Positions 3,620 through 47,158 are shown, counted from the first letter of the whole stretch. The stretch: DNA of 58,819 nucleotides, filler included, from Basidiobolus ranarum (GCA_040143965.1; 5 parts of 5 records of this genome joined end to end with filler, not necessarily neighbours in it), one strand, 5' to 3'. Translations and numbers: made by a program. The notes: generated by a model not told the origin, from the letters alone.

Positions 3620-3917
3620 TGATCTCTTTTGAGAGTTTAAATTGACTGAAACCTCAAACTGAATATATATTAGATCACTTGATTACCCGTATCGTAATGA
3701 AACCTAGCCACCTTAGGGTCAAAACACTTAGTATAGTAATATATACCTTCAGTATATCAATATATAATTTTCAGTATAACTTACTGAATCAATAATCTGA
3801 CAATGATCAACACATGATGGAGGTCTGACGTAGCATCATTTGCCTTGACCAACAACACATGTGTACATTCAGGTCTACAATCAACTGATACCCTTCTCTG
3901 AAAAAAATATATAACTG

Positions 3918-6824
3918 ATGTTGCTTGCGCGAATAAAGAGCATCATGTATGAATTTAAAGAAGAATACAGGAAGTTCCTCGAGGTTCAAAATTGTATTTC
4001 CCTAAATTGTGCTCTTTCTGGAACTAGGTTTGACGATTTGGACACTCATCTTGTGAATCTTGGAACAACTATACACAGCTTCGCAACGACTACCTCTTCA
4101 TCTCACTATAAATATATAATTGCCATATCTGATGAAAATAGCCTGAAAACAATCTATATTGCCTTCAATTCTACGGAAACCATCAAGGAGGCTTTCACTG
4201 ACCGAAGTCTACTAAAGTATATGCCATTGGAGACCTCCGACGCTAATATTCATGCTGGGTTATACCGTGAGGCAATGAAGATCCCGTTGGGATATTTTAT
4301 ATCGAAGTTAACTCAGAGCCATGGGGAGAATGTCAAACTTGTCTTCACGGGCCATTCCCTGGGAGGTATCATTGCTGAATGTGTCGCTCTCATTTTGCTA
4401 CCAATACCAGGTGTGAGGCAAGATAGGGTTTCCGTGTACACTTTCGGTTCGCCTCCGATTGGAGATGAAGCTCTTGCTAACTTCTGTGATGAGAAATATT
4501 CCGAAACCTTCTACTCATTCCACCTGCAGAAAGATATTATTCCAATCATTACCCGGGCAGGGCTCTCCTCAGACGTACCTTTGATTAATGTTCTCGGTGG
4601 GCCTCTGTATGATATTCTTAACAAACCTGGCCTTGGGTTTAAAGAGTCTTTGCAATGCTTCAATGAAAGTATTAGAGGTATTACAAGGCCCAATATTCTC
4701 TCTCATTTTGGGAAGCAGTATATCTGCTCTGCTGCAACAGGAGAATGGTCTCAAATGACCAGAGATGATATTATTACCAGTAATCTTGAGCGTATTAGTA
4801 TCAGTGAACTGGAGAATGAAGGGATGAGACACAAGATCCAACAGCACTGGGTGGATACATACTATAGGCACCTGAGAACATTTGAACAGATAAAGTGTGT
4901 TAGGGACCATCTTTTAAAGTATTACCCTCTAACTACTTACACTAGGTGTATTCCGGAGATATTCGAGGTAGTTGCAGTCTCTAAATACAAAATAAATCGA
5001 GAGTACTATTGCGATCTTGCTATCAGAGGGACAAACATTTGTCACGCAGTCTTTTGGCATCAAGAAAAGCGATGTACTTGGAAATTGGAATACACACCCA
5101 AGCCCAAAATCCTAGTCAAAAATTTCAAGGTAGCATCATTCGACATCAGTAAGGAACAACTCGAATATGGGTCCATCTTCAGTCCGGAGAGAAGGCACGT
5201 AGATATCTTTGACCACATCTCTAGTAATTGGGAAAAACGTATAGAAAGTATGGGAATAGGAGAATTACTTAACATTGGCTTCATGTTTTCCGCCTATAAA
5301 TTCATTGATGATCAGCAACGTAATCGACTCTGTATCATCATGGACGACCTGGAGAAGGTTGCTGGCAATCAGGATACTGAAATCTACAAAATAGAACCTG
5401 AAGAAGCATATGAGCATTTTGTCAAACTACTAACTGGATTGAGTTCGGTTCAAGATGCTCATCGAAATAGTCAGTCTTACACAGATCCCAAATCTGATGC
5501 TTCTAGTACTGCTACTGCAACCGCCACTGCAACAAGTGATACTATGACTTATGCTGAGGCCAGGAGAAAAACTACAGATATCGGGGCATACGAACTGCAA
5601 CAACGCTTAACCAAGAGTGTGACTCTTAGAGTTCTCCGTCTGCTCATGGCAATCGATATGTCCTGGTTTAAAAGTTTCCTTAAGAAGATCGGAATGGGGG
5701 TTAGGCCAGGTTCTAAGTCTATACTGACATTTATGACAGATCTACTGAACTTACCCGAGAAGCTAGTGACTACAGCAACCATATCTACGGTACATCATAT
5801 TTACTCTCTAGGCGCCGAAGAATCGAAATCTGGCCATCTAGAGAAGGCATCGTTATATCTGGAATTGGTAGATCAAACCCGTTTGAAAACATTGACAGAA
5901 ATACTTCGGCAATTTAACGTTACTGTTCCTTCTCCAAACACGTATTCGGTTTCGAAGAAGATATACGATATGGAGAAAATTCTTAAGGAACTCTTGTCAG
6001 GAAATGGTTACGAGACATACGAAGATGTTACACGGATCAGGGTCCAGTATGAGAATCATCATTATAAGTCATACAAGGATTTCATCGCTAAGACAAAACT
6101 ATGGAGTACCAAGGAGAAGGTGGTGCCACTACTTAATATCTTGGAAGTCTCCATGATGGTACACGAAATACGCGACATCATTGGAAGTTATTATGTGGTC
6201 GGGATTATTGGAGACACCAGGTCAGGCAAGAGCAGTTTCTTGTACAAATTAGGTTTCGACTCAAATCCCAATGCATCGGAGAGAACTCCTGATGTAAGGG
6301 TCTACCGAACTCAAACAGACAGTACTAAGCTTGTAATGGTAGATTTTCCTGGGATTGACTCGTATTCAACGGTTGCGGAAGATAATATCTATTATAATAC
6401 GATGCTCATTGGCACGTATGTCGCTATTGGAAATATCGAAGATGCCCTCAATAGTTTGCATCTCACCGATATGTTGGCAAAGCATATGATAAGAACGCAA
6501 GACAGCAGTAACTATATAATCTTTCTGAGCCATGTTGATGTATACATACTGGATATTCTCAAGCAGCACGACATCCCAACTGCGAAAGAAAGAGTGGAAT
6601 CCGTGATTGCACTTCTACTTACGCGAATTCGCTATCTTACTCGACGTGTTGAAATATATCCAGTGTGTCTGGTTTTGGACTACAACAACCTCCCTGCAGA
6701 GCTTGATGAAGACATCTTGCAGTCATGTGGGGTGCTAAATCCGAGGAGGATGATGGACAAGATCAAATGCTTTCTGAATAGAGAAGGTGTAGCATGCCAA
6801 TCTGAGCAGTTTAATTACAGATAA
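3918..6824 (+). CDS. Intronless class-3 lipase / P-loop GTPase fusion protein, copy 2
   Basis: 968-aa ORF (start 3918 or 3945). Motifs VFTGHSLGG, YTFGSPPIGD, KDIIP, QHWVDTYY, GDTRSGKS, ERT (G2), DFPG and SHVD. Full-length paralog of copy 1. Confidence 0.85.
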   Translation: MLLARIKSIMYEFKEEYRKFLEVQNCISLNCALSGTRFDDLDTHLVNLGTTIHSFATTTSSSHYKYIIAISDENSLKTIYIAFNSTETIKEAFTDRSLLKYMPLETSDANIHAGLYREAMKIPLGYFISKLTQSHGENVKLVFTGHSLGGIIAECVALILLPIPGVRQDRVSVYTFGSPPIGDEALANFCDEKYSETFYSFHLQKDIIPIITRAGLSSDVPLINVLGGPLYDILNKPGLGFKESLQCFNESIRGITRPNILSHFGKQYICSAATGEWSQMTRDDIITSNLERISISELENEGMRHKIQQHWVDTYYRHLRTFEQIKCVRDHLLKYYPLTTYTRCIPEIFEVVAVSKYKINREYYCDLAIRGTNICHAVFWHQEKRCTWKLEYTPKPKILVKNFKVASFDISKEQLEYGSIFSPERRHVDIFDHISSNWEKRIESMGIGELLNIGFMFSAYKFIDDQQRNRLCIIMDDLEKVAGNQDTEIYKIEPEEAYEHFVKLLTGLSSVQDAHRNSQSYTDPKSDASSTATATATATSDTMTYAEARRKTTDIGAYELQQRLTKSVTLRVLRLLMAIDMSWFKSFLKKIGMGVRPGSKSILTFMTDLLNLPEKLVTTATISTVHHIYSLGAEESKSGHLEKASLYLELVDQTRLKTLTEILRQFNVTVPSPNTYSVSKKIYDMEKILKELLSGNGYETYEDVTRIRVQYENHHYKSYKDFIAKTKLWSTKEKVVPLLNILEVSMMVHEIRDIIGSYYVVGIIGDTRSGKSSFLYKLGFDSNPNASERTPDVRVYRTQTDSTKLVMVDFPGIDSYSTVAEDNIYYNTMLIGTYVAIGNIEDALNSLHLTDMLAKHMIRTQDSSNYIIFLSHVDVYILDILKQHDIPTAKERVESVIALLLTRIRYLTRRVEIYPVCLVLDYNNLPAELDEDILQSCGVLNPRRMMDKIKCFLNREGVACQSEQFNYR

Positions 6825-8994: not shown

Positions 8995-10668
8995 ATGCGC
9001 CTTTTATTAAGCTTGGTGTCAAGTCTGGCACTGATCAATACTGCTTTTTCCTGGGATGTCTTACAGGTATGTGTTTTGATGTCCAGTCGTAAATAAACAT
9101 CTGCCTGCAATAACTACGAGCTGAATTTAAGTCATCCGAGTACTCCATTAATGCTCTGGTTTCCTGCTAATAACATATGTATTTAGACCACTCGATATGG
9201 CTATCGCTGCTTCGAATTCAAAGGTGGACAAGTAGTTATGCAGCCGTGCCGCTCTGAAAACTCTGGACAACGAATTACCATCCGCAAGTGGGGTCCTAGC
9301 CCATCTGGCCTATTTTACGGTGTGATCTCGGCTCCAGTTAATGGTGTCGATCAATGTATGTACGCTGACGGATTGACTCTCAAGGTAAGTAGTAGAATTA
9401 TGATGTCTTCGTATATAGAAATGTAGAAACTAATCATAATTGTTGTTAATGTAGTATGCAAAGTGCAGCGGTAACGACAATGATGCGGCAAAAAGACATT
9501 ATGCATGGGAAATCTTTCGTAAGTATCAACAATAGTTTCAATGATAGTATCAATGCCAGTTTCAACTATGTATATAAATTCATATCATCATGGATACTAA
9601 TTGATGAAACGCCTTCCTCTGTAGCCATTGGCGAAGGATTATTCCAATGGCGAAATCATTGGTATGATCAACATTGTGTTACCGAAGATGGTGGTTCTGG
9701 TGCTGCTCGCCTTGAGGATTGCAACGCAAGTAGCCACGGCCAACAGTACGTATACAACTCAAGAGTTTTCCCTTCTTTGAAAGCTTCTATTTCTTTTCAT
9801 TCTTGCTCTTTGCACATTGAATTAACACTCTCATAGGCTTAACTGGTTTGATTCAGAGCCAGTCAATGGACGCCAATGGAAAGGCCCCAAAGGTGTTTTA
9901 GATATCATATACCCTGGAGCACACAACGCAGGAACGGAAAGCCTGACCCTCGCATTCCGTACTCAAAAATTGAACATCCGACAGTTGCTGGAGAATGGTG
10001 TTCGCTTGTTTGATATTGATACCTGTTTCAAAGATTCCAGGAGTTATGTCTGCCACACTAACATGGAAAAAAGCCATAAACTCCTTGACGTGTTGAACGA
10101 TATTTCCTCATTTTTGAAAGACTACCCTACTGAAGTGGTCATGATTAGAGCTAGTGATTTTAATGACGACAAGGCGAAATTGGCGACTGCTTTTGTTGAA
10201 GATTTTAAGAGAGCTTTCCCAGAGAATATGAGAATTACTAGTGCCAACATCCTCGGCGGTGCTCAGTTGCGCCAGATGGTGCGATACAGACAACAAGTAT
10301 TCATGACCCTCCCCGCTCTTGACATCTATGCAAACGCTGGGTTATACAACGTCCCTGGAGTGGTCAAATTTGACAGCGATGATGGCGCTAGCATCCAATC
10401 TACCTGGTACTCCACCCCTAGAGAAGATGAGTGGAAGTCCGAATCATACCGTATCTGTACCAACTCCCCTCTCAAACGTGCCATCCTTGATTATTATTCG
10501 CAGTTGGCAGGTTTTCCTTACCCTGACTTAACAAACCAGTTAGGTAACACTCAACTCAAAATAGCAGCAAGTGGGTGCCGAAGCAGGGGCAAGAAGATAG
10601 TAGGAGTATTGATGGACTTTATTGACAGAAAGCAAGTCGATGCCATCGAAAAATTGCAGGCCCCATAG
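8995..10668 (+). CDS. Secreted protein: signal peptide + ricin-B-like beta-trefoil + PI-PLC X-domain (PLC-like phosphodiesterase); 5 exons
   Basis: Manual splicing over four GT-AG introns gives MRLLLSLVSSLALINTAFS (signal peptide), three Cys-pair repeats (RCFE..QPC..GQ; QCMY..AKC..YAW; HCVT..EDC..GQQ), then IYPGAHNAG..TQKLNIRQLLENGVRLFDID..VCH..PTEVVMI. TATAAAA at about 8927. Confidence 0.8.
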
Positions 10669-11710: not shown

Positions 11711-11810
11711 NNNNNNNNNNNNNNNNNNNNNNNNNNNNNNNNNNNNNNNNNNNNTTAATTAATTAANNNNNNNNNNNNNNNNNNNNNNNNNNNNNNNNNN
11801 NNNNNNNNNN
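11711..11810. other. Assembly spacer (N run with TTAATTAATTAA linker)
   Basis: Identical 100-nt construct occurs four times in the window. Confidence 0.98.
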
Positions 11811-17192: not shown

Positions 17193-18170
17193 AGTATTTA
17201 AACTAAAATAAAGAAATTAACCAAGAGAAAGTCTTGGATAATTAATAGAAACCAACAAGCTGAAGGAAGGTGATATTAGAGCCAAAGTAAAAAGTTCTTA
17301 AAGTAATAGTTCGTTCCATGTTGTTGATGATGGCATTAAGGTGAATTTGGTGTGCCCATAACTGATTATATACTTGAATTATAAATGGATTAATTTATCC
17401 CCAATATTAATCAATCTGATTAACTCTTGTGCAATAGGCGTGATTTCAGATTATCACTGAACAAGTAACGTGTTCGCTTGTGCGAAAGAAAAAATTGCTT
17501 GGCATTATCGTCGCTATTAATGGATTTCCTATTTATGGAAGAGAAATGAATGATCTTGTAATTTATTCGAAACACTTTCTGTTGAGCCTCGCTATATATA
17601 AATATTATCTAGATTCAACGACTCAAGTACTATTCCATATTGAATATATGCCGATATCCGAATCTGCACATTCACGCACCTTGTACCAGTGATGGGAAGG
17701 CGATGAAGATAAGAAAGCCAAGACTCCAAGCTCAGTACATGGCTTGTGTACCCCTTTAATCCAGTCAAATTCCTTAACATGGAAAAAAGGGAACACTTGG
17801 AAAAAGAAACATAGCTGAGACAGTCTCGAAATGGGCATGCATATAGAAATGTATTATATAAAGAGTTCAGTAGAATCCTCATCGGGATTGTGTTGTCAAT
17901 TTTCAAGATTAAGTTAAGGACAATATGAGTTTATTTCGATGATTTCCGGATTTGGGAATCCAAATCAAGGTACCTTCGCAGGCTGTCGTCCAAAATGGTT
18001 TTCCCATACACATATCTCCATTGTGCCACAAATTAACATACCCTTATAGGGTGGAGGTTTGAACATACTGCGTGCAACTGTATCTAAGCAGACGATTGGT
18101 GGGGTTAAGGCAATTGATTGTAATAAAACTCTCCAGTACACAAATATCATTTATCATTTTTCCTCCTACA

Positions 18171-19607
18171 ATGTCTCCTCCACAGTCCTTGGTGGTAGTT
18201 CCTGCAGTATGCCCTACGTCTCCACCTTTGATGAAAACCTCTAAATCTTCCTCCTTTACCATGGAAGAAGTGAGAACTCGTGTTCAAAACGGCGAGATCT
18301 TAATCGTTTATGATGGTAAGGTTTACAAGCTTAACAAGTGGATCAAGCACCACCCTGGAGGTGAGCTTGCTGTCAGACATATGCTGGGCAAAGACGCTAC
18401 CGATGTTGTTCGAGCAATGCATCCTGAGTGGGTTCTTACGAAAAAAATGAAACATTTTTATGTTGGTGACATGATTGAAGACCCTCTTGCTTCTCTTCAT
18501 CCTAACGCTGACCTCAAAACTCAACAGAGTATCTCTGAAGCTTACAAACGCCTTGAAACTAAAATCCGCGGTCAAGGACTTTACAACACTAACTACATGT
18601 GTTACGCTTGGGAAGCAATTCGCTGTGGTATTGCCTTTGCAATAATGTTATCGTTAATCGTCTGGGGACCTCAAAACTATTGGAATTATTTCATTGCTGC
18701 TCTTGCTAATGCTTTCGTTTGGCATCAAAGTGCTTTCTGTGCACATGATGCAGGCCATAACGAAATCACCCATAACATGAAGTACGACAGTACCATTGGC
18801 ATTCTCCTAGGAAACTACCTTGGTGGCTTATCTATCGGATGGTGGAAGAAGAGTCACAATGTTCACCATATCATTACCAACCACCCCGAACACGATCCTG
18901 ATATTCAACTGCTACCATTCTTTGCAGTTACCTCAAAATTCTTCAACAACCTGTTCTCCACTTACCACAACAAAGTATTGGTATTCGACGGCGCCTCTAA
19001 AGTTCTGATCTCTATTCAGCATTATCTTTATTATCCTATTCTTTGCTTTGGCCGTTTCAATCTCTATGTTCAAGGGCTTATTTTCTTGATCACCGATGAG
19101 CATGCACCACTCCGTAAGTGGGAATTGTTGGGAATGGCCTTTTTCATATCGTGGTACTCGTACCTACTCTCTTTCATCCCAAGCTGGGGAATGATTTTCA
19201 TGTATGTCATGGTTTCCCATGTATTTACTATGATGCTTCACGTTCAGATTACTTTGTCTCACTATGGAATGTCTACTGACGACCACGGACCTGACGAAAG
19301 CTTCGCATCCCGCCAACTTCGTACCACTATGGATGTTGATTGTCCAGCTTGGTTTGACTGGTTCCATGGAGGTCTTCAATTCCAGACAATCCATCATTTA
19401 TTCCCTCGTGTTCCCAGACATAATCTTCGGGCTGTTCGTCCACTAGTGGAGGAGTTCTGCAAGGAGGTTGAGCTCGAATACCATAATTATGGGTTTATTA
19501 AAGGCAATGGAATTGTTATTGGAGCACTCCGAGATGTTGCCAATCAAGTATCTTTCATCATGAAAGTAGCAGCACATGAAGCACGTAACCATGTCCACGT
19601 AGAATAA
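18171..19607 (+). CDS. SLD1: Cytochrome b5-fused delta-8 sphingolipid desaturase (intronless)
   Basis: HPGG haem motif, His boxes HDAGH, HNVHH and QTIHH, plus HPEHDPDIQ and RQLRTTMDV. First ATG at 18171. Confidence 0.85.
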   Translation: MSPPQSLVVVPAVCPTSPPLMKTSKSSSFTMEEVRTRVQNGEILIVYDGKVYKLNKWIKHHPGGELAVRHMLGKDATDVVRAMHPEWVLTKKMKHFYVGDMIEDPLASLHPNADLKTQQSISEAYKRLETKIRGQGLYNTNYMCYAWEAIRCGIAFAIMLSLIVWGPQNYWNYFIAALANAFVWHQSAFCAHDAGHNEITHNMKYDSTIGILLGNYLGGLSIGWWKKSHNVHHIITNHPEHDPDIQLLPFFAVTSKFFNNLFSTYHNKVLVFDGASKVLISIQHYLYYPILCFGRFNLYVQGLIFLITDEHAPLRKWELLGMAFFISWYSYLLSFIPSWGMIFMYVMVSHVFTMMLHVQITLSHYGMSTDDHGPDESFASRQLRTTMDVDCPAWFDWFHGGLQFQTIHHLFPRVPRHNLRAVRPLVEEFCKEVELEYHNYGFIKGNGIVIGALRDVANQVSFIMKVAAHEARNHVHVE

Positions 19608-23504: not shown

Positions 23505-23604
23505 NNNNNNNNNNNNNNNNNNNNNNNNNNNNNNNNNNNNNNNNNNNNTTAATTAATTAANNNNNNNNNNNNNNNNNNNNNNNNNNNNNNNNNNNNNNNN
23601 NNNN
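23505..23604. other. Assembly spacer (N run with TTAATTAATTAA linker)
   Basis: Same 100-nt construct. Confidence 0.98.
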
Positions 23605-35283: not shown

Positions 35284-35383
35284 NNNNNNNNNNNNNNNNN
35301 NNNNNNNNNNNNNNNNNNNNNNNNNNNTTAATTAATTAANNNNNNNNNNNNNNNNNNNNNNNNNNNNNNNNNNNNNNNNNNNN
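35284..35383. other. Assembly spacer (N run with TTAATTAATTAA linker)
   Basis: Same 100-nt construct. Confidence 0.98.
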
Positions 35384-35971
35384 TTTTATACGTTTATGAA
35401 CAGTTGTCATTTAGCACACTTTTCCATCTCATAAACTATTTCTTGCACTGACAAGTGTTTTTTTTAGCAAACTTATACTTCAAAGTATATAGGACTATAC
35501 ACGAGCCTGTACCCTATACTAACACTTCTCTAATAATCTTTATATGTAAATCACCACTTTTATGTATTTGATATCAAACCTAAAGCTTCTAACAACTCTC
35601 CTTTGCGACTTTTGGCGTTTCATCAGCTCGAGGTAAAATAGTATCACTGACTGGGAAGTCATGTTTTGATCATTGTTAGTAAAACTGTTGCATATCGTAA
35701 CATGCTAATAGAGAATTTCCCGTATCCTAACACTTATAATAAAGGTGCAAATAATTGGACTGGAAGCATGTTTGAGAACTCGTTGGAGAGAGTAAGACTA
35801 TAGATGTTTTACTCTCGATTTAAACCATAAATATTTGGAATATATTATTAGAAATATGAGCTTGATACAATTCACATTTGGGCTCATGTTTATTGTAATT
35901 GAGTAAGCATGATCATAGATACAGCTATCAGGTTATACTGGCATAGGGAATACTGGAGAACTACTTAGAAC

Positions 35972-36598
35972 TCAGTGTCTATTGCCACTGAAATATCTAA
36001 TCTTGAAGGAGCGATGAGCAAATTTCTTGTATTTCTTGTAGGCTCTTCTGGGACGGTACATTGGCCACTGAGGAATGATGATCTGGGGTTGAGGTGGCTG
36101 AGCTGGTTGGTATATAGTCTGGTCAACCAACTGAGCTTGATCAAATTGATTCGAGTTGGACAGTGCCTGACTACCTTGAGATGCGTGGCCTTTCACTTCA
36201 TCTAGTAGTGCTTGTTTAGGCTGTAGTTGGCTCAAGTCAACATTCCATGCAGAAGGAGTGCCTTGGGCCCGATCTTCAGATTGAGATTGTTCACCTTCAA
36301 CCGGGGCCTGGTCCATTTGACCTTCATCCAGGGTGGACTCCTCGTCTGCTGGCTGCTCTTCACTCTGTTGGTACATGGGCATCACTTGTGGTTGAACATA
36401 ACTATACTCCATTTCTTGTGGGGCTGCCTTATATTGTGGTTGTATATCGCAAGAGCCAACCTGTTGCCCACAAGATCTATCCTTGTAAGTGGTGCGTGCA
36501 ACTGCATTTGCAAATCCCGGTAAATTGTGGAGTGGTGCTGCCAATGTTCCTTGAGCCAAGATACATGAAGAGACCAAGAGAGTTAGGACGGTTTGCAT
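35972..36598 (-). CDS. Secreted Q/P-rich prepro-protein with cationic C-terminal tail, array copy A (208 aa)
   Basis: Start MQTVLTLL at 36598 by alignment and TATA position. Signal peptide, and tail RPRR-AYKKYKKFAHRSFKIRYFSGNRH. Confidence 0.85.
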   Translation of the reverse strand: MQTVLTLLVSSCILAQGTLAAPLHNLPGFANAVARTTYKDRSCGQQVGSCDIQPQYKAAPQEMEYSYVQPQVMPMYQQSEEQPADEESTLDEGQMDQAPVEGEQSQSEDRAQGTPSAWNVDLSQLQPKQALLDEVKGHASQGSQALSNSNQFDQAQLVDQTIYQPAQPPQPQIIIPQWPMYRPRRAYKKYKKFAHRSFKIRYFSGNRH

Positions 36599-37081
36599 GA
36601 TTGAGGTATATAGAATACGAAAGAAGCAGACGCTGTATAACGGAAAGGACCGACGAAGTTGTATTTTATACGTTAATGAAGAGTTGTCATTTAGCACACT
36701 TTTCAATCTCACATACTATTTCTTATATTAACTATTAGTCGCTGTATCTTGTACTTTAAAGTGTATAGACTATACGTAATCTTGCACCATATTCTAGTGC
36801 TTATCCAATGTGCTTTATATTAGAGTTAGTACTTATACGTATTAATTATCAAACCTTGAGCTACAAACACCTTTATAAATTATATCACTTGACTGGGTTG
36901 AGATTCAATGATATTAAGCCATAAAACTTAGATTCAACATACAAATAAGCAATTCTTCATGTCCATAGATCCGTAAGCTGATATATTATAAACTGTGTTT
37001 AAGCCAGAATTTATTGATATGAAGTAAACTTAATCGTAGCTACTGTGATCAGGTACTAACATGGGATATATTAGGACTCTG

Positions 37082-37219
37082 TGCTGTTACCACTAAAATA
37101 TCTAATTTGAAGGAACGATGAGCAAATCTCGTATTTATATAAGCTCTTCCGGGTCGGTATGTAGACCATTGAGGAAAGATTATTTGAGGTAGCTCAGAGT
37201 TATTTTCATAATGACCATG
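37082..37219 (-). pseudogene. Internally deleted remnant of the array gene
   Basis: ATGAAAATAACTCTGAGCT is joined directly to PQIIFPQW..RPGRAY..FAHRSF..YFSGN with frameshifts. TATA and TGACTC are retained upstream. Confidence 0.75.
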
Positions 37220-37865
37220 TTATCAATAAGAATGCTCTGAATGTAGAATACCTGATAGTACACGATAGAACAGTCCTTTATAAATATATCCGGAGGAAGA
37301 GTCAATAGCTATAGGTCATAACCGAGAAAGATCAAACGTCATAGTTGAGGTGATTTATCGTGTCCTTAGATAGGTTGTGGCACTTGGTCTGGCCAATATA
37401 TTAACAATTACATAGAGTCTCTGGGTATATTCCATTTGTTACTAATTAAATAATCCTGTCAGATATGAATGACTCTCTAATACTCTTCATCAAATGATGT
37501 TAAGAATTGGGAGTTAATCATTATATTTACACAACGATCGGTATTTTGAAATCACTGTATCTAAGCTGGACTCCTTCAAGGAAAGGTGTAAAGGTAAAAA
37601 TTACCATACGAATTGAAGAAATTCTATTTTCTTATACTCGTTTGCCAAACTTAGAAAGTAAAACCAAAATTAAGTTATGCCATTTTCTTTATCAACTATA
37701 AAAGTATTCAGTCCCTTTTTATCCGCTATGAATATTGCTAATTACTAGTTAGAATCCAGATGAATTTTAAATCATATTTTGGCTGATTTTTATTGACGCG
37801 AGGTAAACAGAGCTGCTGCCATCATATTATATGAATATGAAAAATACTGATAACCGGCTGAGAAC

Positions 37866-38492
37866 TTAATGTCTATTCCCACTAAAATATCTAATCTTGA
37901 AAGAACGGTGAGCAAATTTCTTGTATTTCTTGTAGGCTCTTCTGGGTCGGTGCATTGGCCACTGAGGAATGATGATCGGAGGTTGAGGTGGCTGAGCTGG
38001 TTGGTATATAGTCTGGTCAACCAACTGAGCTTGATCGAATTGATTCGAGTTGGACAGTGCTTGACTACCTTGAGCTGAGTGACCTTTCACTTCATCAAGT
38101 AGTGCTTGTTTGGGTTGTAGTTGACTTAGGTCAACGTTCCATGTAGAAGGAATACCTTGGGCTTGGTATTCAGATTGAGACTGTTCATCCTCAGCTGGAG
38201 CCTGTTCCATTTGACCTTTATCCTGGGTGGACTCCTCATCTGCTGACTGCTCTTCACTCTGTTGGTACATGGGCATCACCTGTGGCTGAACATAACTATA
38301 CTTCGTTGCTTCTGGAGAAGTCTGATATTGAGGCTGAATATCGCAAGAACCGCCATGTTGTCCACAAGACCTATCCTTGTAAGTAGTTTGCGCAACTGCA
38401 TTCGCAAAACCTGGTAGATTATGGAGTGGAGCTGTCATTGCTCCTTGAAGCAAGATGCATGAGGGGGCCAAAAGAGTTAGAAAATTTTGCAT
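37866..38492 (-). CDS. Secreted prepro-protein, array copy B (208 aa)
   Basis: Intact ORF and full-length paralog. Confidence 0.87.
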   Translation of the reverse strand: MQNFLTLLAPSCILLQGAMTAPLHNLPGFANAVAQTTYKDRSCGQHGGSCDIQPQYQTSPEATKYSYVQPQVMPMYQQSEEQSADEESTQDKGQMEQAPAEDEQSQSEYQAQGIPSTWNVDLSQLQPKQALLDEVKGHSAQGSQALSNSNQFDQAQLVDQTIYQPAQPPQPPIIIPQWPMHRPRRAYKKYKKFAHRSFKIRYFSGNRH

Positions 38493-39022
38493 AATTGTTA
38501 AGATGGTAATAGCTATTATTCCAGTGTAGAATAACTGATAGCAAATGGGAAAACATCCTTTTTATATAGATACAACGTGGTCGTTTCGTAAACCCGACCC
38601 CTTTAATTGCACTAACTTTTCATTTTATTTGACACTCAGATAAACAAAATTTTAATTTTGAGATGACTAGTATGTATTTTAAGTGTGCTGTTGTACTGAG
38701 TTCGACTAAGATATTATTAGTAGTATCAGAGTGTCTAGCTACCTTTCATTACAAATAGAAGATCAATGAAATTATCTTGTTTCTCATAAGCGTTAGCACA
38801 AAGATATCTAAAAGTGAAAGGGTTTTTAGCGTTTCTTGATCGCTCAACTTCGCCTTCTCGGTATTTTACTTGTATGTATCGAGTAATTAAATTGTATGAG
38901 CTTAATTCTGATTTACTAATATTTATTATAACTGTTTGGTTGCTAGGAGGCCTGAATATTTCAAGTAAAGACAGTAGTCAACTAAATGAAAAAACTGTTC
39001 TTTGGTAGTTGATATACCACCA

Positions 39023-39667
39023 TTAGTGTCTGTTTCCACTAAAGTATCTAATTTTGAAGGAACGATGAGCAAATTTCTTGTATTTCTTGTAGGCTCTTCT
39101 GGGTCGGTGCATTGGCCACTGGGGAATGATGATCTGAGGTTGAGGTGGCTGAGCTGGTTGGTATATAGTCTGGTCGACCAACTGGGCTTGGTCGAATTGA
39201 TTTGAATTGGACAGAGCTCGACTACTTTGAGATGCATGGCCATTCACTTCATCCAGTAATGCCTGCTTGGGCTGCAGTTGGCTCAAGTCAACATTCCACG
39301 AAGTAGGAGTAGTGGTGTAAGAAGGAGCGTCTTGAGCTTGATCCTCAGACTGTGATTGTTCGTCCTCAGCTGGAGCCTGTTCCATTTGACCTTCATCCGG
39401 GGTGGAATCCTCGTCTACTGGCTGCTCTTCACTCTGTTGGTACATGGGCATCACCTGTGGTTGAGCATAGCTATACTCCATTACTTGAGGTACTGCCTGA
39501 TATTGTGGTTGTATAACGCAAGAGCCGCCATGTTGTCCACACGATCTATCCTTGTAAGTGGTGCGTGCAACTGCATTTGCAAAGCCTGGTAAATTGTGGA
39601 GCGGTGCTGCCAATATTCCTTGAGCCAAGATACATGAAGAGACGAAAAGAGCTAGGACGGTTTGCAT
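39023..39667 (-). CDS. Secreted prepro-protein, array copy C (214 aa)
   Basis: Intact ORF and full-length paralog. Confidence 0.87.
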   Translation of the reverse strand: MQTVLALFVSSCILAQGILAAPLHNLPGFANAVARTTYKDRSCGQHGGSCVIQPQYQAVPQVMEYSYAQPQVMPMYQQSEEQPVDEDSTPDEGQMEQAPAEDEQSQSEDQAQDAPSYTTTPTSWNVDLSQLQPKQALLDEVNGHASQSSRALSNSNQFDQAQLVDQTIYQPAQPPQPQIIIPQWPMHRPRRAYKKYKKFAHRSFKIRYFSGNRH

Positions 39668-40321
39668 GATTGAGGTGTACAGAATACGAATGAAGCAGAA
39701 GCAGTATAATCAGAAAGGACCCACAGAGTCGTATTTTATACGTTTGTGAAGAGTTGTCATTTAGCACACTTTTCAATTTCGCATACTATTTCTTATATTG
39801 GTAAGTATTTTTTTCGCTAATTTGTACTTTAAAGTATGTAGGGTTATACATTCGCTTGTATCATACACTAGTACTTACTTAATTGTCTTTATATATAAAT
39901 CACTACTTATATGTATTTATTATCAAATCTCTAATAATTTTCCATTGTGAGTTCTGACGCTTGGTTGAGGAAAGGTACAATAGTATCAGCGACTGGCAAG
40001 GCATATTTAGATCATTGCTAGTAAATTTTGCCATTGCATAGCACGTTAATAGAGAATATCTCATATCCATAAATCCATAATATTAGTACAAATAATTGAA
40101 CTTGAAGCAACAAGTGTTTCTTTCTGAGAACTTCTTGAAGTGGGTAAGATTATTGATGATTTACTCTCGATTTGGATTATATAATTTAGAATCTGTCATT
40201 GAAATTTGAACATGCTAAAATTCATATTTGGACCCATGTTTATTGTAACAGAGTAAGCATGGCCATAGATACAGCTATGAGGTTATATTAACATGGGAAA
40301 TGCTGAGGAACTACTTAAAAC

Positions 40322-40966
40322 CTAGCGTCTATTGCCACTGAAATATTTAATCTTGAAGGAACGGTGAGCAAATTTCTTGTATTTCTTGTAGGCTCTTGTA
40401 GGGCGATGTATTGGCCACTGAGGAATGATGATCGGAGGTTGAGGTGGCTGAGCTGGTTGGTACACAGTTTGGTCAACCAACTGAGCTTGGTCGAATTGAT
40501 TCGAATCGGACAGAACTTGACTACCTTGAGCTGAGTGGCCTTTCACTTCATCCAGTAATGCTTGCTTAGGTTGTAATCGACTCAGATCAACATTCCATGA
40601 AGCGGGACCCGTAGAATATGAAGGGGCCTCTTGAGTCTGGTCTTCAAACTGGGATCGGCCGTCCTCAGCGGGAGCCTGTTCCATTTGACCTTCATCCGGG
40701 GTGGACTCCTCGTCTGCTGGCTGCTCTTCACTCTGTTGGTACATGGGCATCACTTGTGGTTGAACATAACTGTACCTCATTTCTTGTGGGGCTGCCTTAT
40801 ATTGTGGTTGTATATCGCAAGAGCCAGCCTGTTCTCTACAAGATCTATCCTTGTAAGTGGTTTGCGCAACTGCATTTGCAAATCCTGGTATGTTATGGAG
40901 TGGAGCTGCGATTGCTCCTTGAATCAAGATACACGAAGAAACAAAAAGAGTTAGAGCTGTATGCAT
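40322..40966 (-). CDS. Secreted prepro-protein, array copy D (214 aa)
   Basis: Intact ORF with site variant RPTR. Confidence 0.87.
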   Translation of the reverse strand: MHTALTLFVSSCILIQGAIAAPLHNIPGFANAVAQTTYKDRSCREQAGSCDIQPQYKAAPQEMRYSYVQPQVMPMYQQSEEQPADEESTPDEGQMEQAPAEDGRSQFEDQTQEAPSYSTGPASWNVDLSRLQPKQALLDEVKGHSAQGSQVLSDSNQFDQAQLVDQTVYQPAQPPQPPIIIPQWPIHRPTRAYKKYKKFAHRSFKIKYFSGNRR

Positions 40967-41438
40967 CGTTACTGAGTTGTTGATGACAATGATGTTGATA
41001 TAATGAAGGAGGGAGTTGCACTTTTATACATATATAGCGAGGAGGAATCATGAAATACATCACTTTAATCTCACTATTCCGCCATCAACATTATTTACTG
41101 ACGATAAAAATCTCATGCCTCAGATATTTTAATCCAAAACTGTAGTGCAAAAAGATTAGATACTAACTTTCGAAAGTATTAATTCTGTTTTCTATATATT
41201 CAGAATATTTCTGGAAAGTTGTACCGCCAAAAGCCAGTATCTTTGCATTGTATTTAGTGCCTCATTGATGATGCTCTACTATTGAACTAAAACGATATTT
41301 CGAAGTTTTGTTTTTATTGAAATTTAATCATATTGCATGTCATATAGAGACTGGTTTGCTTTGACATAGAGCACTGTGATCATGCTATACCAACATGGGA
41401 AATGTCGTTATGAGAATAATCAATGAAAGAGTGAGGTT

Positions 41439-42143
41439 TTAGTATCTGTTGCCACTGAAGTACCTGATCTTGAAGGAACGATGAGCAAATTTTTTGTATT
41501 TCTTATACTCTCTTTTGGGTCGGTGCATTGGCCACTGGGGAATGATGATCTGGGGTTGAGGTGGCTGAGCTGGTTGGTAAACGGTTTGGTCAACCAACTG
41601 AGCTTGATCGAATTGATTCGAATTGGACAATGCTTGACTACCTTGAGATGCGTGGCCTTTCACTTCGTCTAGTAATGCTTGTTTGGGCTGAAGTTGGCTC
41701 AAGTCGACATTCCATGAAGCAGGAGTACCCTGGATGTGGTCTTCAGGTTGATACTGGTCATCCTCAGCGGGAGCTTGCTCCATTTGATCTTGATCAGGAG
41801 TGGATTCATCATCTGTTGGTTGCTCTACACCTTGAGTATCTTCAGCTGGAGCCTGTTCCATTTGACCTTGATCAGAAGTGGACTCCTCGTTTGCTGATTG
41901 CTGTTCACTTTGCTGGTACATTGGCATCACTTGTGGTTGAGCGTAACTATATTCTGGTGCTGGTGGAGCTACCTGATATTGAGGTTGTATATTACAAGAG
42001 TCAACCTGTTCTCTGCACGAATTATCTTTGTAAGTGGTGTGCGCAACAGCATTAGCAAAACCGGGTAGATTATAAGGTGGAGTTGCTAAGGCTCCTTGAA
42101 CCAAGACATAAGAAGAGATCAAAAAAGCTAGTGTAGTTTGCAT
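41439..42143 (-). CDS. Secreted prepro-protein, array copy E (234 aa; two acidic repeats)
   Basis: Intact ORF with site variant RPKR. Confidence 0.87.
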   Translation of the reverse strand: MQTTLAFLISSYVLVQGALATPPYNLPGFANAVAHTTYKDNSCREQVDSCNIQPQYQVAPPAPEYSYAQPQVMPMYQQSEQQSANEESTSDQGQMEQAPAEDTQGVEQPTDDESTPDQDQMEQAPAEDDQYQPEDHIQGTPASWNVDLSQLQPKQALLDEVKGHASQGSQALSNSNQFDQAQLVDQTVYQPAQPPQPQIIIPQWPMHRPKREYKKYKKFAHRSFKIRYFSGNRY

Positions 42144-42760
42144 GATTGTTGAGGTATCAATGGCAATGAACTAAGTGCAGAATGATTAGCAATTCGCGAG
42201 AGAGCCGCCGTTTTATATTTCTATTACTTGAAAGAGTCATATAGTACACCTTTTTAATGCCACTAACTATTTCTCTATATTCTGGTTGAGGTAAATCACA
42301 TCTGAATGAATATCTACTTTTTGCGATGAACTGGTTGGACTTCGATTCTGACATAAATAATATTATGAATTACTATCAAATATCAATTTGTAATCGAATT
42401 ATATCTTCTAGAGTGCTTATAATAGCAATATAATAACGTTTATACCATGGGACTCCTATCTGACAATGTCTTTTAGCAGGTATAATCGTTTTTTCATATT
42501 TCGAAACTCAATTTTTGCATTCCAGAGATCAGCTGTATATATACGTGTATTCATAGTTTTAAAATGTCTGTGAAAGACTAGCTTTTTGTCTGGACTTATA
42601 TTCCAGTTAGATGATATTCTTTTTAAACAATTCCCCATCAGATATAAGATTAGTCACATTCTACCGGTACATACTTAGATGGACATTTATTTATGTGAGA
42701 TACTTTTGTTGCTGCTATAATAACATATCAATAAGAGAGACATTAATCAATTAACAGAGC

Positions 42761-43381
42761 TTAGTATCTATTCCCACTGAAATATCTAATCTTGAAGGAA
42801 CGGTGAGCAAATTTCTTGTATTTCTTGTAGGCTCTTCTGGGTCGGTGCATTGGCCACTGAGGAATAATAATTGGAGGTTGAGGTTGCTGAGCTGGTTGGT
42901 ACAGAGTTTGGTCAACTAACTGAGCTTGATCAAATTGATTCGAATTTGACAACGCTTGACTACCTTGGGATGAGTGACCTTTAACTTCATCCAGTAATGC
43001 TTGTTTAGGCTGTAGTTGGCTCAGGTCAACATTCCATGCAGTAGGAGTGCCTTGGGCCCGATCTTCAGATTGAGATTGTTCATCCTCAACCGGGGCCCGT
43101 TCCATTTGACCTTCATCCTGGGTGGAATCCTCGTCTACTGGTTGCTCTTCACTCTGTTGGTACATGGGCATCACTTGTGGTTGAACATAGCTATGCTCCG
43201 TCGGTACTGCCTGATACTGTGGCTGTATATCGCAAGAGCCAACCTGCTGCCCACAGGACCTATCCTTGTAAGTGGTTTGCGCTATTGCATTTGCAAACCC
43301 TGGTAGGTTCTGAAGTGGGGCTGCCAATGCTCCTTGACCCAAGACACATGAAGAGATGAATAAAGCTAGAACAATTTGCAT
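42761..43381 (-). CDS. Secreted prepro-protein, array copy F (206 aa)
   Basis: Intact ORF and full-length paralog. Confidence 0.87.
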   Translation of the reverse strand: MQIVLALFISSCVLGQGALAAPLQNLPGFANAIAQTTYKDRSCGQQVGSCDIQPQYQAVPTEHSYVQPQVMPMYQQSEEQPVDEDSTQDEGQMERAPVEDEQSQSEDRAQGTPTAWNVDLSQLQPKQALLDEVKGHSSQGSQALSNSNQFDQAQLVDQTLYQPAQQPQPPIIIPQWPMHRPRRAYKKYKKFAHRSFKIRYFSGNRY

Positions 43382-43764
43382 GATTGTAGAAATGTCGATG
43401 ACAATGAACCAAATGGAGAATGATTAGCAATAAACGAGCGGCCGCCCTTATATACATCTCTTGTGAGAGTCATAAAGTAAACCTTATTCATTCCACTAAC
43501 TCTTCCTTTAGTTCTATACTAAAAATTCTGGTTCAGGTAAATCAAATTAAAATGAGTAACTAGTTTTTGCAGTAAGATCTTTGAACTTAATTCGATTCTG
43601 ACGTAGGCTACGCTATGAAATGCAACCAAGTACCAGCTCGTAATCAATTTCTTTATTCTAAAGTGCCAATAATAGCAATATAAGGATGTCAATTATATTG
43701 TCTTTCATGATTGTCTCGGACTTTTAGTAACACTCATTTCAAAGTGAGGCTGTTCAAATGAGTG

Positions 43765-43838
43765 AGTTCATTATCGGCAGAGTGTTCAGTACTTTGAGCA
43801 TCTTCAGCGGGAGCCTGTTCTATCTCACCTTGATCAGA
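43765..43838 (-). pseudogene. Isolated remnant of the acidic repeat of the array gene
   Basis: Translates SDQGEIEQAPAEDAQSTEHSADNE with no flanking coding sequence. Confidence 0.7.
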
Positions 43839-44257
43839 TAAAAATAATGATTTCACGTCATATAGAGAACCGCTAATTATTCCAATCCAAGAGCCATGTC
43901 ACCGATGCAAGTGAACTGGATAAAAATTATATATGCAGTTGAATTAGTTCAGGATAATGGGGTAAAATGAGGTAAAATTTGTATAATCAAAACAAGCTTC
44001 ATGACCGTTACTTTCTGCAATGTAATCAAGAGAAGGCAGTTCTCCGATGGATTATGTATACTCTAAGAAACTGGATTGATATCATTGCTTGTTTAGTTTA
44101 CCAGATTCACGGATGACGATGAGCCACTGAAAGTGATTGGTCTGAAATCATTCATAATATAATAACTATGTTTGATTTGGCTTCTTTCTTATCTGAATAT
44201 GGAATGGTAACAGAACATAGGGAGTTTAAATCCACGAATCTTTGAATCAGTGGGATT

Positions 44258-44962
44258 TTGATGTCTGTTACCACTGAAATATCTGATTTTGAATGCACTG
44301 TGTGCAAATTTCTTGTATTTTTTGTAAGCTCTTCTGGGTCGGTGCATTGGCCACTGGGGAATGATGATCTGAGGTTGAGGTGGCTGAGCTGGTTGATAAA
44401 CAGTCTGGTCAACTAACTGGGCTTGGTAAAACTGGTTCGAATTGGACAGTGCTTGACTACTTTGGGATGCGTGACCTTTCACTTCGTCGAGTAGCGCTTG
44501 TTTGGGCTGTAGTTGATTCAGGTCAACATTCCACGCAGAAGGAGTGCTTTGAGTTTGTTCCTCAGACTGAGATTGTTCATCCTCAGCAGGAGCCTATTCC
44601 ATTTGACCTTGATCAGGAGTGGACTCATCACCGGTTGGTTGTTCTGCACTTTGGTAGTCTTCAGCTGGAGCCTGCTCCATTTGGTCTTGATCAGAAGTAG
44701 ATTCTTTGTCGACAGGCTGATATTCTTTCTGTTGATACACGGGCATCGTTTGTAGTTGATCATAACTATACTCTGTAACCGGGGAAGTAATCTGATATTG
44801 AGGTTGTATATCGCAAGGCCCAATTTGTTGTCCACAAGATCTGTCTTTGTCAGTGGTTTGTGCTGCTGCATTTGCAAAACCTGGTAGATTACGGAGTAGA
44901 GCTGCCGATGCTCCTTGAACTAAGACACAAGAAGAAGCCAAAGTGAGTAGAATAGGTTGGAT
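44258..44962 (-). pseudogene. Array copy G, pseudogene
   Basis: Start codon ATG>ATC (44962), CAG>TAG nonsense at 44594-44596, and terminal stop TAA>CAA (44258-44260). Confidence 0.88.
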
Positions 44963-45538
44963 GAATGACGAATAGTTAATACTGATAAGCGAAGAATAAG
45001 ACGAGTATTGACTAATGGAAACTAGGAATATACATATACAAGCACTGCCTAACCAACAAGTTCTATCTGAAGTGCTTCGATAATCTACCAAACGATCCAC
45101 TTCTGATAGGAACGTAATAAGCTATCAAGAAGTATACCAAATTGGACTATATTTACTTAAAGGTCCAAGGAATGAATCAGTTACTTGACGAGCATAAAGC
45201 AGGACAGCAATGGTAATACGAAAACTATGGTTGATGTAGTAACTGGTACTTTTCTGGTGGGAATGATTATTCTTCCTAGTACTACGCGTACTTTTGACTA
45301 TGTTAATGGCATTGAGGTATCTTCTCTTATGGTAGCAGCATTTGTCAAGTATGATCACTTGAACTGAGAACGGTAACTGCTATTTCTAGTAAATCACTTA
45401 TTAACTGATTATAATGATAGGGATACTTGACGATGGTATGCAGATATTAGTGATTGGAATACATCATTGAAAAAGGTTCAAGTTATTTATTCATATTTCC
45501 AAGTCGTTATAAGAAAATTCAGTGAAAAGGATGAAGGC

Positions 45539-46261
45539 TTAATGTCTGTTGCCGCTAAAATATCTGATTTTGAAAGAACGGTGAGCAAATTTCTTGTATT
45601 TCTTGTAAGCTCTTCTGGGACGATGCATTGGCCACTGGGGAATGATTATTGGAGGTTGAGGTTGTTGCGCTGGTTGGTACACAGTTTGGTCAACCAACTG
45701 GGTTTGATCGAATTGATTCGAGTCGGACAGTGCTTGACTACCTTGGGATGCATGGCCTTTCACCTCATCGAGTAGCGCTTGTTTGGGCTGGAGTTGACTC
45801 AAGTCAACATTCCATGAAGCAGGAGTAGTGGTATAGGAAGGAGTTTCTTGCGTTTGGTCCTCAGACTGAGATTGTTCATCTTCAGCGGGAGCTTGTTCCG
45901 TTTGACCTTGATCTGGAGTGGACTCATCATCGGTTGGTTGCTCTGCATTTTGAGCATCGTCAGCTGGAGCCCGTTCCATTTGGCCTTGATCAGGAGTGGA
46001 CTCATCATCCGTTAGCTGTTCCTCATTCTGCTGGTACACTGGCATTGCTTGTGGTTGGACATAACTATACTCTCTCGCCTGAGGAGTTGCCTGATATTGG
46101 GGTTGTATATCGCAAGATCTACCCTGTTGTCCGCAATAACTATCTTTATAAGTGGTATGTGCCACTGCGTTCGCAAAACCTGGTAGGTTATGAAGCGGAG
46201 CTGCCAATGCTCCTTGAGCCAACACACAAGAAGATACCAAAAGAGCGAGAGTGGTTTGCAT
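45539..46261 (-). CDS. Secreted prepro-protein, array copy H (240 aa; two acidic repeats)
   Basis: Start MQTTLALL at 46261, intact ORF. Confidence 0.87.
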   Translation of the reverse strand: MQTTLALLVSSCVLAQGALAAPLHNLPGFANAVAHTTYKDSYCGQQGRSCDIQPQYQATPQAREYSYVQPQAMPVYQQNEEQLTDDESTPDQGQMERAPADDAQNAEQPTDDESTPDQGQTEQAPAEDEQSQSEDQTQETPSYTTTPASWNVDLSQLQPKQALLDEVKGHASQGSQALSDSNQFDQTQLVDQTVYQPAQQPQPPIIIPQWPMHRPRRAYKKYKKFAHRSFKIRYFSGNRH

Positions 46262-46846
46262 GATTGTTGAGGTGTCAATGGTAATGATCCGAGGATAGAA
46301 TGGTTGACAATTAACGAGAGAGCCACCTATATATATTACTTGCAAGAGTCATAAAGTAAACCTTATTAATCTCAATAACTCTTCCTTTAAATTTGGGTTT
46401 AGGTAAATCATATCAAAGTGGATATCTGCATTTCTTAATGAACTCATTAAACTTGATTTGATCTTGACTTTAACGATATTATGAATAACGGTCCAGCACC
46501 AGTTCTTAATCGAACTACCTCTACAAGAGTGCTAAAATAACATTCTAGCAGTAACTTGAACTATTCATGTGGCAAAGATTATTCTCCGAAGGTTTGTACT
46601 ATATGTACTTTCAACAATAGCAATGAGGCATATTTCCTTTCTATAGTAGGATTTGTCAATTATGATCACCTCACCTGAACGTGGTAACTGCTATTTTCTA
46701 GTACACAACCTATTAGTTCGTTTGATGCGGTTGATGCTTTAACGTGGTTTGCTATTGTTCATATTCGAAAATATTTATTGAGGATTGAGGTTTTATATTT
46801 ATACTTGCAAGGCGTTATGAGAATAGTTAATGAAAGGGGCGGGAGT

Positions 46847-47058
46847 TTAGTGTCTGTTGCCACTGAAATATCTGATCTTGAAAGAACGGTGAGCAAATTT
46901 CTTGTACTTCTTATAAGCTCTTCTGGGACGGTGCATTGGCCACTGGGGAATGATGATCTGGGGTTGAGGTGGCTGAGCTGGTTGATACACAGTTTGGTCA
47001 ACCAACTGAGCTTGATCGAAGTGATTCGAGTCGGACAGTGCTTGACTGCCTTGGGATG
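46847..47058 (-). CDS. Array copy I, 3' part only (truncated by gap)
   Basis: Reads ..SQGSQALSDSNHFDQAQLVDQTVYQPAQPPQPQIIIPQWPMHRPRRAYKKYKKFAHRSFKIRYFSGNRH*. Confidence 0.8.
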
Positions 47059-47158
47059 NNNNNNNNNNNNNNNNNNNNNNNNNNNNNNNNNNNNNNNNNN
47101 NNTTAATTAATTAANNNNNNNNNNNNNNNNNNNNNNNNNNNNNNNNNNNNNNNNNNNN
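47059..47158. other. Assembly spacer (N run with TTAATTAATTAA linker)
   Basis: Same 100-nt construct. Confidence 0.98.

Follow-up and report, generated by a model that had tools for sequence, protein, structure and literature searches.

Secreted precursors with a basic cleavage site are known from fungi, where alpha-factor, the Rep1 repellents of Ustilago and the Kex2-processed repeat proteins (KEPs) are the closest described examples, and from animals, in which the cationic host-defence precursors of the histatin type consist of a signal, an acidic region and, after a basic site, a short, non-amphipathic peptide rich in His, Lys, Arg and Tyr, and are encoded in tandem arrays. The mussel foot proteins and the plant extensins (Y-K-Y-K motifs) are Tyr/Lys-rich adhesive or cross-linked structural proteins, with Tyr/Lys-rich repeats over the greater part of their length and DOPA or isodityrosine modifications. 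In our study, a stretch of 58,819 nucleotides of Basidiobolus ranarum DNA, filler included (GCA_040143965.1; the window hereafter), was found to contain a tandem array of seven intact genes, which encode proteins with a predicted signal peptide, a conserved core and a basic/aromatic C-terminal tail. They belong to a genus-restricted, highly expanded and tightly constrained family of predicted secreted proteins, undescribed so far. An earlier note on this DNA had described the proteins as an acidic propiece and a convertase site in front of a cationic payload.

The window consists of five contigs, each of about 11.7 kb, which were strung together artificially with N44-TTAATTAATTAA-N44 spacers. 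On the array contig, seven open reading frames (ORFs) of 206-240 amino acids (aa) were found intact from ATG to stop, all on the minus strand, and were identified as copies by ORF reading, tblastn and alignment. A tblastn search of the whole window with copy 7 returned three further pieces (a pseudogene, a relic and a cut copy), all on the array contig, and no family match on the other four contigs.
35384..47058, whole contig with the array, 11,675 bp, an N44-TTAATTAATTAA-N44 joint on each side
35972..36598, minus strand, copy 1, intact, 208 aa, site RPRR
37103..37189, minus strand, degenerate relic of the tail-coding end, 60% identity over 30 aa, stops nearby
37866..38492, minus strand, copy 2, intact, 208 aa, site RPRR
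39023..39667, minus strand, copy 3, intact, 214 aa, site RPRR
40322..40966, minus strand, copy 4, intact, 214 aa, site RPTR, tail end KYFSGNRR
41439..42143, minus strand, copy 5, intact, 234 aa, two acidic repeat units, RPKR/E
42761..43381, minus strand, copy 6, intact, 206 aa, site RPRR
44261..44962, minus strand, full-length pseudogene copy, no start or stop codon left, spacer interrupted by one in-frame stop
45539..46261, minus strand, copy 7, intact, 240 aa, two acidic repeat units, RPRR
46847..47058, minus strand, copy truncated at the contig end, 69 C-terminal aa and stop codon present, RPRR, tail intact

The seven copies aligned with one another end to end without a break and are therefore intronless, which agrees with the seven intact, same-strand, intronless genes of the earlier note. 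Its inventory was right about the cut copy (46847-47058) and had overlooked the pseudogene (44261-44962) and the relic (37103-37189). The array had also been said to run off both ends of the contig; only the high-coordinate end interrupts a copy, whereas the low-coordinate end is made of 588 bp of non-coding DNA.

The layout of the protein was obtained from an alignment of the seven copies with their relatives. It contains, in order, a signal peptide, a block with a C-x6-C loop, a Q/P/Y-rich stretch, acidic repeats, the core, a Pro/Gln/Ile-rich linker and the basic/aromatic tail. The following segments and elements were located.
36539..36598, minus strand, copy 1 signal peptide, aa 1-20, MQTVLTLLVSSCILAQGTLA/AP, by sequence reading and an AlphaFold helix at residues 3-18
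36056..36247, minus strand, copy 1 core, aa 118-181, WNVDL...IIIPQWPMY, net charge about 0
36044..36055, minus strand, copy 1 R-P-R-R, candidate kexin/furin site (putative cleavage)
35975..36043, minus strand, copy 1 basic/aromatic C-terminal tail, 23 aa, net +8
45877..46030, minus strand, copy 7 spacer, two tandem 78-bp (26-aa) acidic repeat units
46328..46337 (approximate), minus strand, TATA-like element about 65-75 nucleotides upstream of the copy 7 ATG

In 7/7 intact copies, the hydrophobic N-terminus of about 20 aa ended in ..QGTLA/AP, with small residues at positions -1 and -3; the signal peptide of the earlier note can thus be read from the sequence, at about 20 aa and not about 19. 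The conserved N block was APLHNLPGFANAVA.TTYKD.SC-x6-C, and its Cys loop, SCGQQVGSC, contains six residues between the cysteines and not the five (C-x5-C) once given. The acidic spacer was built from a unit of 26 aa (78 bp), present in one to three units, with the number varying among the paralogs; this unit was the sole internal repeat and was devoid of dibasic flanks. The core, N/Q-rich and net neutral, comprised 64 aa (WNVDLSQLQPKQALLDEVKGH...ALSNSNQFDQAQLVDQT.YQPAQPPQP.IIIPQWPMH, in shorter notation WNVDLSQLQPKQALLDEV...SNSNQFDQAQLVDQT.YQP...IIIPQWPMH). It lies between the acidic spacer and R-P-x-R, which had been taken as adjoining, so that the core had been overlooked. The R-P-x-R sequence was RPRR in 5/7, RPKR in 1/7 and RPTR in 1/7 of the intact copies. 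The tail (AYKKYKKFAHRSFKIRYFSGNRH) was present once in each protein, at the C-terminus, and its composition was as claimed before, with 5 K, 3 R, 3 Y and 3 F, no D/E and a net charge of +8; it contained only 1-2 His. The net charge ranged from -10 to -20 in the spacer, was about 0 in the core and +7 to +9 in the tail, and amounted to -2 to -14 in the mature protein. The mature protein contained 15% Gln, 9% Pro, 5.3% Tyr and 4.8% Lys, and the Tyr/Lys patch was confined to the last 23 aa.

The synonymous divergence (dS) and the ratio of nonsynonymous to synonymous divergence (dN/dS) were calculated by the Nei-Gojobori method for each segment over all pairs of the seven intact copies.
Signal peptide, dS 0.39, dN/dS 0.58
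N block, dS 0.94, dN/dS 0.11
Acidic spacer, dS 0.71, dN/dS 0.21
Core, dS 0.69, dN/dS 0.058
Four-residue site, dS 0.34, dN/dS 0.19
Tail, dS 0.99, dN/dS 0.027

The tail was the most constrained segment of the protein and the core was nearly as invariant. The segment-wise comparison bore out the statement that the tail is invariant while the signal and the spacer drift (dN/dS of 0.027 against 0.58 and 0.21, respectively). The nucleotide similarity between the units was 73-84% and was largely limited to the coding sequence, the intergenic DNA having diverged. An ATATAA-type element was found about 65-75 nucleotides 5' of the ATG in all seven intact copies, and most of them shared a start context similar to CAATCATG. 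With a dS of 0.7-1.0, the copies are old paralogs under strong purifying selection on the protein, and they are real genes, since seven full ORFs, a low dN/dS at high dS, a DNA similarity limited to the coding sequence and TATA-like elements were found together. The view of a dosage-amplified family was half right; the age of the paralogs and the diverged intergenic DNA do not fit a recent amplification. An origin of the tail invariance in recent amplification or gene conversion was ruled out, as the synonymous divergence of the tail was high (pS 0.55, dS 0.99). The exact invariance of tail and core in such old paralogs points to sequence-specific recognition, for which charge alone is insufficient. 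The core, too, must serve some sequence-specific role in its own right. A picture of propiece and payload omits this core, which is as constrained as the tail and common to all members of the family.

The family was then found to be confined to one genus in every search made. A word-indexed protein search returned 34 proteins, of which five came from the array contig and the other 29 were all from B. ranarum or B. meristosporus CBS 931.73. The profile search that the earlier note had called for was made with the C-terminal 91 aa against 1.84 billion representatives and gave 24 matches at E <= 0.001, of which 24/24 were from Basidiobolus (5 + 10 + 9 named in three look-ups). In Pfam-A, 0/13 family members scanned (three array copies and ten relatives) scored above the gathering score, and the array copies had no match at E <= 10. 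Neither the C-terminal profile nor the tail by itself gave anything meaningful in a sequence search of the PDB. In the ESM Atlas, no usable match was found for the C-terminal part, and the best score for the whole protein, 0.79, was within the range of shuffled proteins. No description of the family was found in the literature searched, including that on the capilliconidial adhesive, which is in line with the earlier statement that no described family is recognised; the accessible part of a zygomycete secretome paper contains nothing on the family (PMC9391592).

Five clusters of B. meristosporus sequences at 90% identity hold 22, 8, 4, 3, and 3 sequences, spread over many scaffolds, and B. ranarum has more arrays on small contigs, e.g., four genes on a contig of 6,715 bp and three on a contig of 7,231 bp. 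In a maximum-likelihood tree of 44 C-terminal domains, the species label changed 3 times, as against about 15 times with shuffled labels, and the 20 multi-copy B. meristosporus rows formed one clade (support 87/84); the big expansions are thus species-specific. The positions ..P.QALLD.....S.....ALS.SNQFDQ.Q..DQT.YQ of the core were invariant or nearly so across all subfamilies. The core, not the tail, defines the family and is the only element common to all members. The K/Y-type tail, ..KKY....H..FKIRYFSGNR., is common to the larger group of members. In the most divergent members (P0048, P0054, P0050, and P0055), this tail gave way to an acidic run and, after it, a basic end rich in Arg and Cys. 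The family, found only in Basidiobolus, where two species have dozens of copies each, is annotated merely as 'hypothetical protein'. Basidiobolus is common in the gut communities of amphibians and reptiles and is an occasional agent of human and animal disease, and the biology peculiar to a lineage, such as competition with bacteria, spore adhesion or wall construction, often rests on families like this one.

AlphaFold2 gave no fold for the full-length protein (mean pLDDT 52), the sole secondary structure being the helix of the signal at residues 3-18, and no fold either when the C-terminal 91 aa were modelled from an alignment of 30 sequences (mean pLDDT 62). The co-modelling of four copies of the C-terminal domain scored 0.00, which is not evidence either way. 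On these models, the protein is best described as intrinsically disordered, and the candidate cleavage site would be accessible in it.

R-P-[RK]-R is a textbook site of furin and kexin, and KK pairs are cut poorly by Kex2. A [KR]R pair was present at the boundary of core and tail in 6/7 intact array copies and in 16/18 B. ranarum-type sequences (15/17 database records and array copy 5), and the inner basic pairs of the array tail were KK. To this extent the convertase site of the earlier note was upheld; it is not family-wide, being shifted or absent elsewhere. The B. meristosporus types read ...AARALRGG/YKKYKR/SARRHFKVRYFSGNRH or ...ARSYGGGQKKYKR/SAHKYFKIRYFSGNRYID, and a canonical KR or RR was found in 45/46 B. 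meristosporus-type records, seven residues further in. Such a shifted pair would be cut inside the 23-mer in B. meristosporus, so that any released unit shared by the two species would be the last ~16 residues, ..A[HR]..FK[IV]RYFSGNR., and not the 23-mer. In both amplified subfamilies, one canonical site is retained close to where the tail begins. When the 27-mer was shuffled, 3.3% of the shuffles kept all [KR]R sites within the first four residues, in a weak, post-hoc test. The avoidance of internal [KR]R in the tail was not informative, since 32% of the shuffles were also without one. In our estimate, cleavage in the subfamily of the array is somewhat more probable than its absence.

The present proteins resemble the fungal Kex2 precursors in the predicted signal peptide, the disordered precursor, the multigene expansion and the canonical KR/RR ahead of a short conserved peptide. 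They differ from them in that the site is placed differently in the two species, and in having no sequence similarity to any named family in Pfam. The tandem repeats separated by KR, RR or KK that define the KEPs were absent, and the candidate peptide is single and C-terminal. B. meristosporus is reported to have the most predicted KEPs of 1,461 fungal strains, 43 in number (Umemura 2020, PMC7329392). A Basidiobolus-only type with 7 members is included in these 43 (PMC7329392). Some members of the present family may be among them.

The earlier suggestion of a membrane-active tail was examined by its helical hydrophobic moment, which was 0.283, as against 0.234 +/- 0.118 in the shuffles, 32% of which were as high. 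The mean hydrophobicity of the tail was -0.42. With no raised moment and a hydrophilic sequence, the tail is not a membrane-lytic helix of the magainin type, and a lytic helix is unlikely. The tail has the charge of the amphipathic alpha-helical antimicrobial peptides (+7 to +9) but lacks their high hydrophobic moment and hydrophobicity. By analogy, as a hydrophilic polycation that bears aromatic residues, it would fit the binding of polyanions (histatin-like or cell-penetrating) or a Tyr/Lys anchor patch.

Our best reading, held tentatively at a little short of an even chance, is that a kexin cuts a precursor into two products, both conserved, and that the tail is a cationic peptide which binds polyanions. 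The protein would enter the secretory pathway, as read from its sequence. In the late Golgi, a convertase of the kexin type would cut it once at R-P-(R/K)-R, where the chain is exposed and disordered; this cut is inferred from the known specificity of Kex2 and furin. The products would be an acidic, core-bearing fragment of about 160-195 aa and a non-amphipathic tail of about 23 aa with a charge of +8. More speculatively, the tail would bind polyanions (nucleic acids, or the surfaces of microbes or of the wall, for instance) in a histatin-type or cell-penetrating manner and not as a pore-forming helix, and the setting might be the competition with bacteria of the gut or litter. Basidiobolus is reported to be common in the herptile gut, where its presence correlates with the structure of the bacterial community (PMC10964425). 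It is possible, though unlikely, that Basidiobolus evolved its own class of gene-encoded cationic peptides, in which the invariant tail shapes the gut bacteria of amphibians and reptiles and the N/Q-rich partner fragment chaperones, neutralises or targets the tail. Such a two-product precursor would be convergent with the animal host-defence peptides and would yield a second functional product. If the tail is released, it would represent a rare gene-encoded cationic peptide system in an early-diverging fungus.

The proteins share with the histatin-type precursors a signal peptide, an acidic region, a basic site, a hydrophilic, non-amphipathic, polycationic and aromatic tail and tandem genes. 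No homology to them was found in Pfam or the PDB, and the likeness is compositional. Unlike in the animal host-defence precursors, a neutral core of 64 aa separates the acidic block from the tail, the tail is invariant and it has only 1-2 His.

Several observations speak against the release of the tail as a cationic peptide. The site at the B. ranarum position was replaced by ...ALRGG... or ...SYGGG... in the B. meristosporus types, and no canonical site was found in the low-copy members P0029, P0040, and P0043; in P0040 and P0044, the conserved Arg was followed by Pro. One array copy contained RPTR, and P0005 contained RPRK. Several tails contained at least two canonical sites, e.g., KR/S with RR/H in B. 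meristosporus and CKRCQRRYRRRG in P0054, and would be shredded if a kexin had free access to them. The site was also less constrained than the tail (dN/dS of 0.19 against 0.027). A simple peptide-precursor model does not explain that the core is as conserved as the tail and is shared more widely. The tails were near-identical in the 18 B. ranarum-type sequences, with three single-residue variants, although most families of antimicrobial peptides diversify. The amphipathicity of the tail, calculated as a helix, a strand and a 3-10 helix, was in no case above that of the shuffles.

The protein may instead stay uncleaved as a matrix, wall or adhesive protein, i.e., a disordered block polyampholyte in which the acidic repeats are combined with a Tyr/Lys-rich +8 tail as an anchor; we regard this main rival reading as possible but rather doubtful. 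The tail would bind anionic polymers or the acidic block of neighbouring molecules, giving a gel, a coacervate, a mucilage or a cross-linked layer. Possible sites would be the conidia, the adhesive tip of the capilliconidia and the zygospore walls, with Gln, Lys and Tyr serving in transglutaminase or dityrosine cross-links. The conserved elements towards the N-terminus (C-x6-C loop), in the middle (core) and at the C-terminus (tail) agree with this, as do the predicted disorder, the 15% Gln and 9% Pro of the mature protein, the variable number of acidic repeats and the hydrophilic, non-amphipathic character of the tail (mean hydrophobicity -0.42), and dozens of gene copies suit a bulk material. 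A basic C-terminal tail also follows the core in nearly all subfamilies, with a dibasic site or without one, including the Arg/Cys-rich P0048 and P0054. However, an exposed R-x-[KR]-R or KR at the foot of an anchor should be counter-selected in a secreted fungal protein, yet it was kept in 16/18 and 45/46 sequences of the B. ranarum and B. meristosporus types, respectively. Adhesives and matrix proteins tend to conserve composition and not sequence, and the residue-level invariance found here (dN/dS 0.03-0.06) is unusual for them. Tyr and Lys make up only about 5% each of the whole mature protein.

A patch of the YKKYKK type, a secreted disordered protein, charge blocks capable of coacervation and many gene copies are shared with the mussel foot proteins and the extensins, whereas the Tyr/Lys-rich part comprises only 23 aa here, its exact sequence is conserved and a convertase site lies at the base of the patch. 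The caseins and other SCPP proteins and the salivary proline-rich proteins, which are lineage-specific, secreted and disordered, likewise have tandem arrays, P/Q richness and acidic clusters; no sequence homology to them was found, and unlike them the present family has a sharply conserved core and tail. The language-model likeness to alpha-S2-casein and to the arthropod DUF4794/GYR clusters was 0.75-0.79, which is below the level of a lead and in the range of shuffled proteins. If the tail is not released, the family would be a candidate for the adhesive or matrix material of these fungi.

Peptide hormones have a conserved mature peptide at the C-terminus of a variable precursor, and the tail might, improbably, act as such a signal (autocrine, developmental, pheromone-like or host-directed), as an invariant peptide with a specific receptor. 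The C-terminal peptide is indeed the most constrained segment (dN/dS 0.027) and near-identical in all paralogs, a canonical dibasic site lies upstream of it, and its last ~16 residues are common to both species. But dozens of genes for one signal are unusual, the core is equally constrained, and receptor ligands are not typically non-specific polycations of +8, as this tail is.

It is very improbable that the protein is the precursor of a ribosomally made, post-translationally modified peptide, in which the core would serve as a recognition leader for modifying enzymes of the secretory pathway and the Tyr-rich tail would be cross-linked as in the dikaritins. The order of a leader-like core, a dibasic site and a Tyr/Phe-rich C-terminal peptide would suit it. 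However, the tail is found once per protein and KR-flanked repeats of a core peptide, as in the dikaritin precursors, were absent; we know of no modified peptide of fungi that resembles a 23-mer with eight basic residues. Dikaritin precursors have UstYa/DUF3328 or tyrosinase genes as neighbours. The 11.7-kb contig contained the array only and no gene of a modifying enzyme, which on so short a contig is weak evidence. Basidiobolus is reported to make small cyclic peptides, which the authors linked to non-ribosomal synthetases (PMC10964425).

The last explanation, non-functional DNA, whether a repeat in decay, an ORF carried by a transposon or an artefact of the assembly, has next to no chance of being correct, since the short contig, the one pseudogene and one relic and the inconsistent public gene models are outweighed by selection (seven full ORFs at dS 0.7-1.0, with dN/dS down to 0.03), by the homologues kept in a second species, by the retained TATA-like elements and by the lack of transposon domains in Pfam scans of family members.

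The public gene models of the array contig were found to be partly chimeric or truncated, which matters for secretome surveys. Model P0011 (K7432_009544) is a fusion that begins with the N-terminal half of copy 5, skips copy 4 and ends with the C-terminal half of copy 3. Model P0010 is copy 2 begun at an internal Met and hence has no signal peptide, and P0019 (K7432_009548) was built on the pseudogene at 44261-44962. Copies 3 and 5 had no correct model among the proteins returned by the database search. Antisense ORFs of 117-141 aa were present on the plus strand at 36247-36600, 40618-40983, and 41630-42055, over copies 1, 4, and 5 only; they are probably by-products of the codon usage of the sense strand and not genes.

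A second conserved module, module B, was found upstream of the core in several low-copy members, P0029, P0040, P0044, P0048, and P0032/38 (PLLRQVFTTVTRKH.NLN.ANA.S.K...KYQAGP). In its longer form, it comprises about 40-55 aa and reads PLLRQVFTTVTRKH.NLN.ANA.S.K...KYQAGPS.E.EG, with carriers that include P0029, P0032, P0038, P0040, P0044, P0048, and P0050. A profile-profile comparison of module B with the core and tail gave a probability of 1.6%, at which homology is not shown, and the sole alignment was ..NVKYQSGP / ..FKIRYFSGN. In Pfam-A, 0/8 module-B segments scored above the gathering threshold. The B. meristosporus models P0030, P0033, P0034, P0078, P0082, and P0084 resemble mis-spliced fusions of a family gene and a module-B gene next to it.

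The contigs of the window meet at the following joints, and as the joins are artificial, the neighbouring contigs are not the genomic context of the array.
11711-11810, N44-TTAATTAATTAA-N44 joint between contigs
23505-23604, N44-TTAATTAATTAA-N44 joint between contigs
35284-35383, N44-TTAATTAATTAA-N44 joint between contigs
47059-47158, N44-TTAATTAATTAA-N44 joint between contigs

Outside the array contig, open frames at 342-3353 and 3915-6824 lie next to each other on the plus strand; both are about 1,000 aa long and contain a class-3 lipase domain (E 5e-24 and 3e-20, respectively); the frame at 342-3353 also had a weak match, below the threshold, to an IIGP-type GTPase. The open frame at 9826-10668 contained a PI-PLC X domain, and that at 18063-19607 encoded a fatty-acid desaturase fused to cytochrome b5, both on the plus strand.

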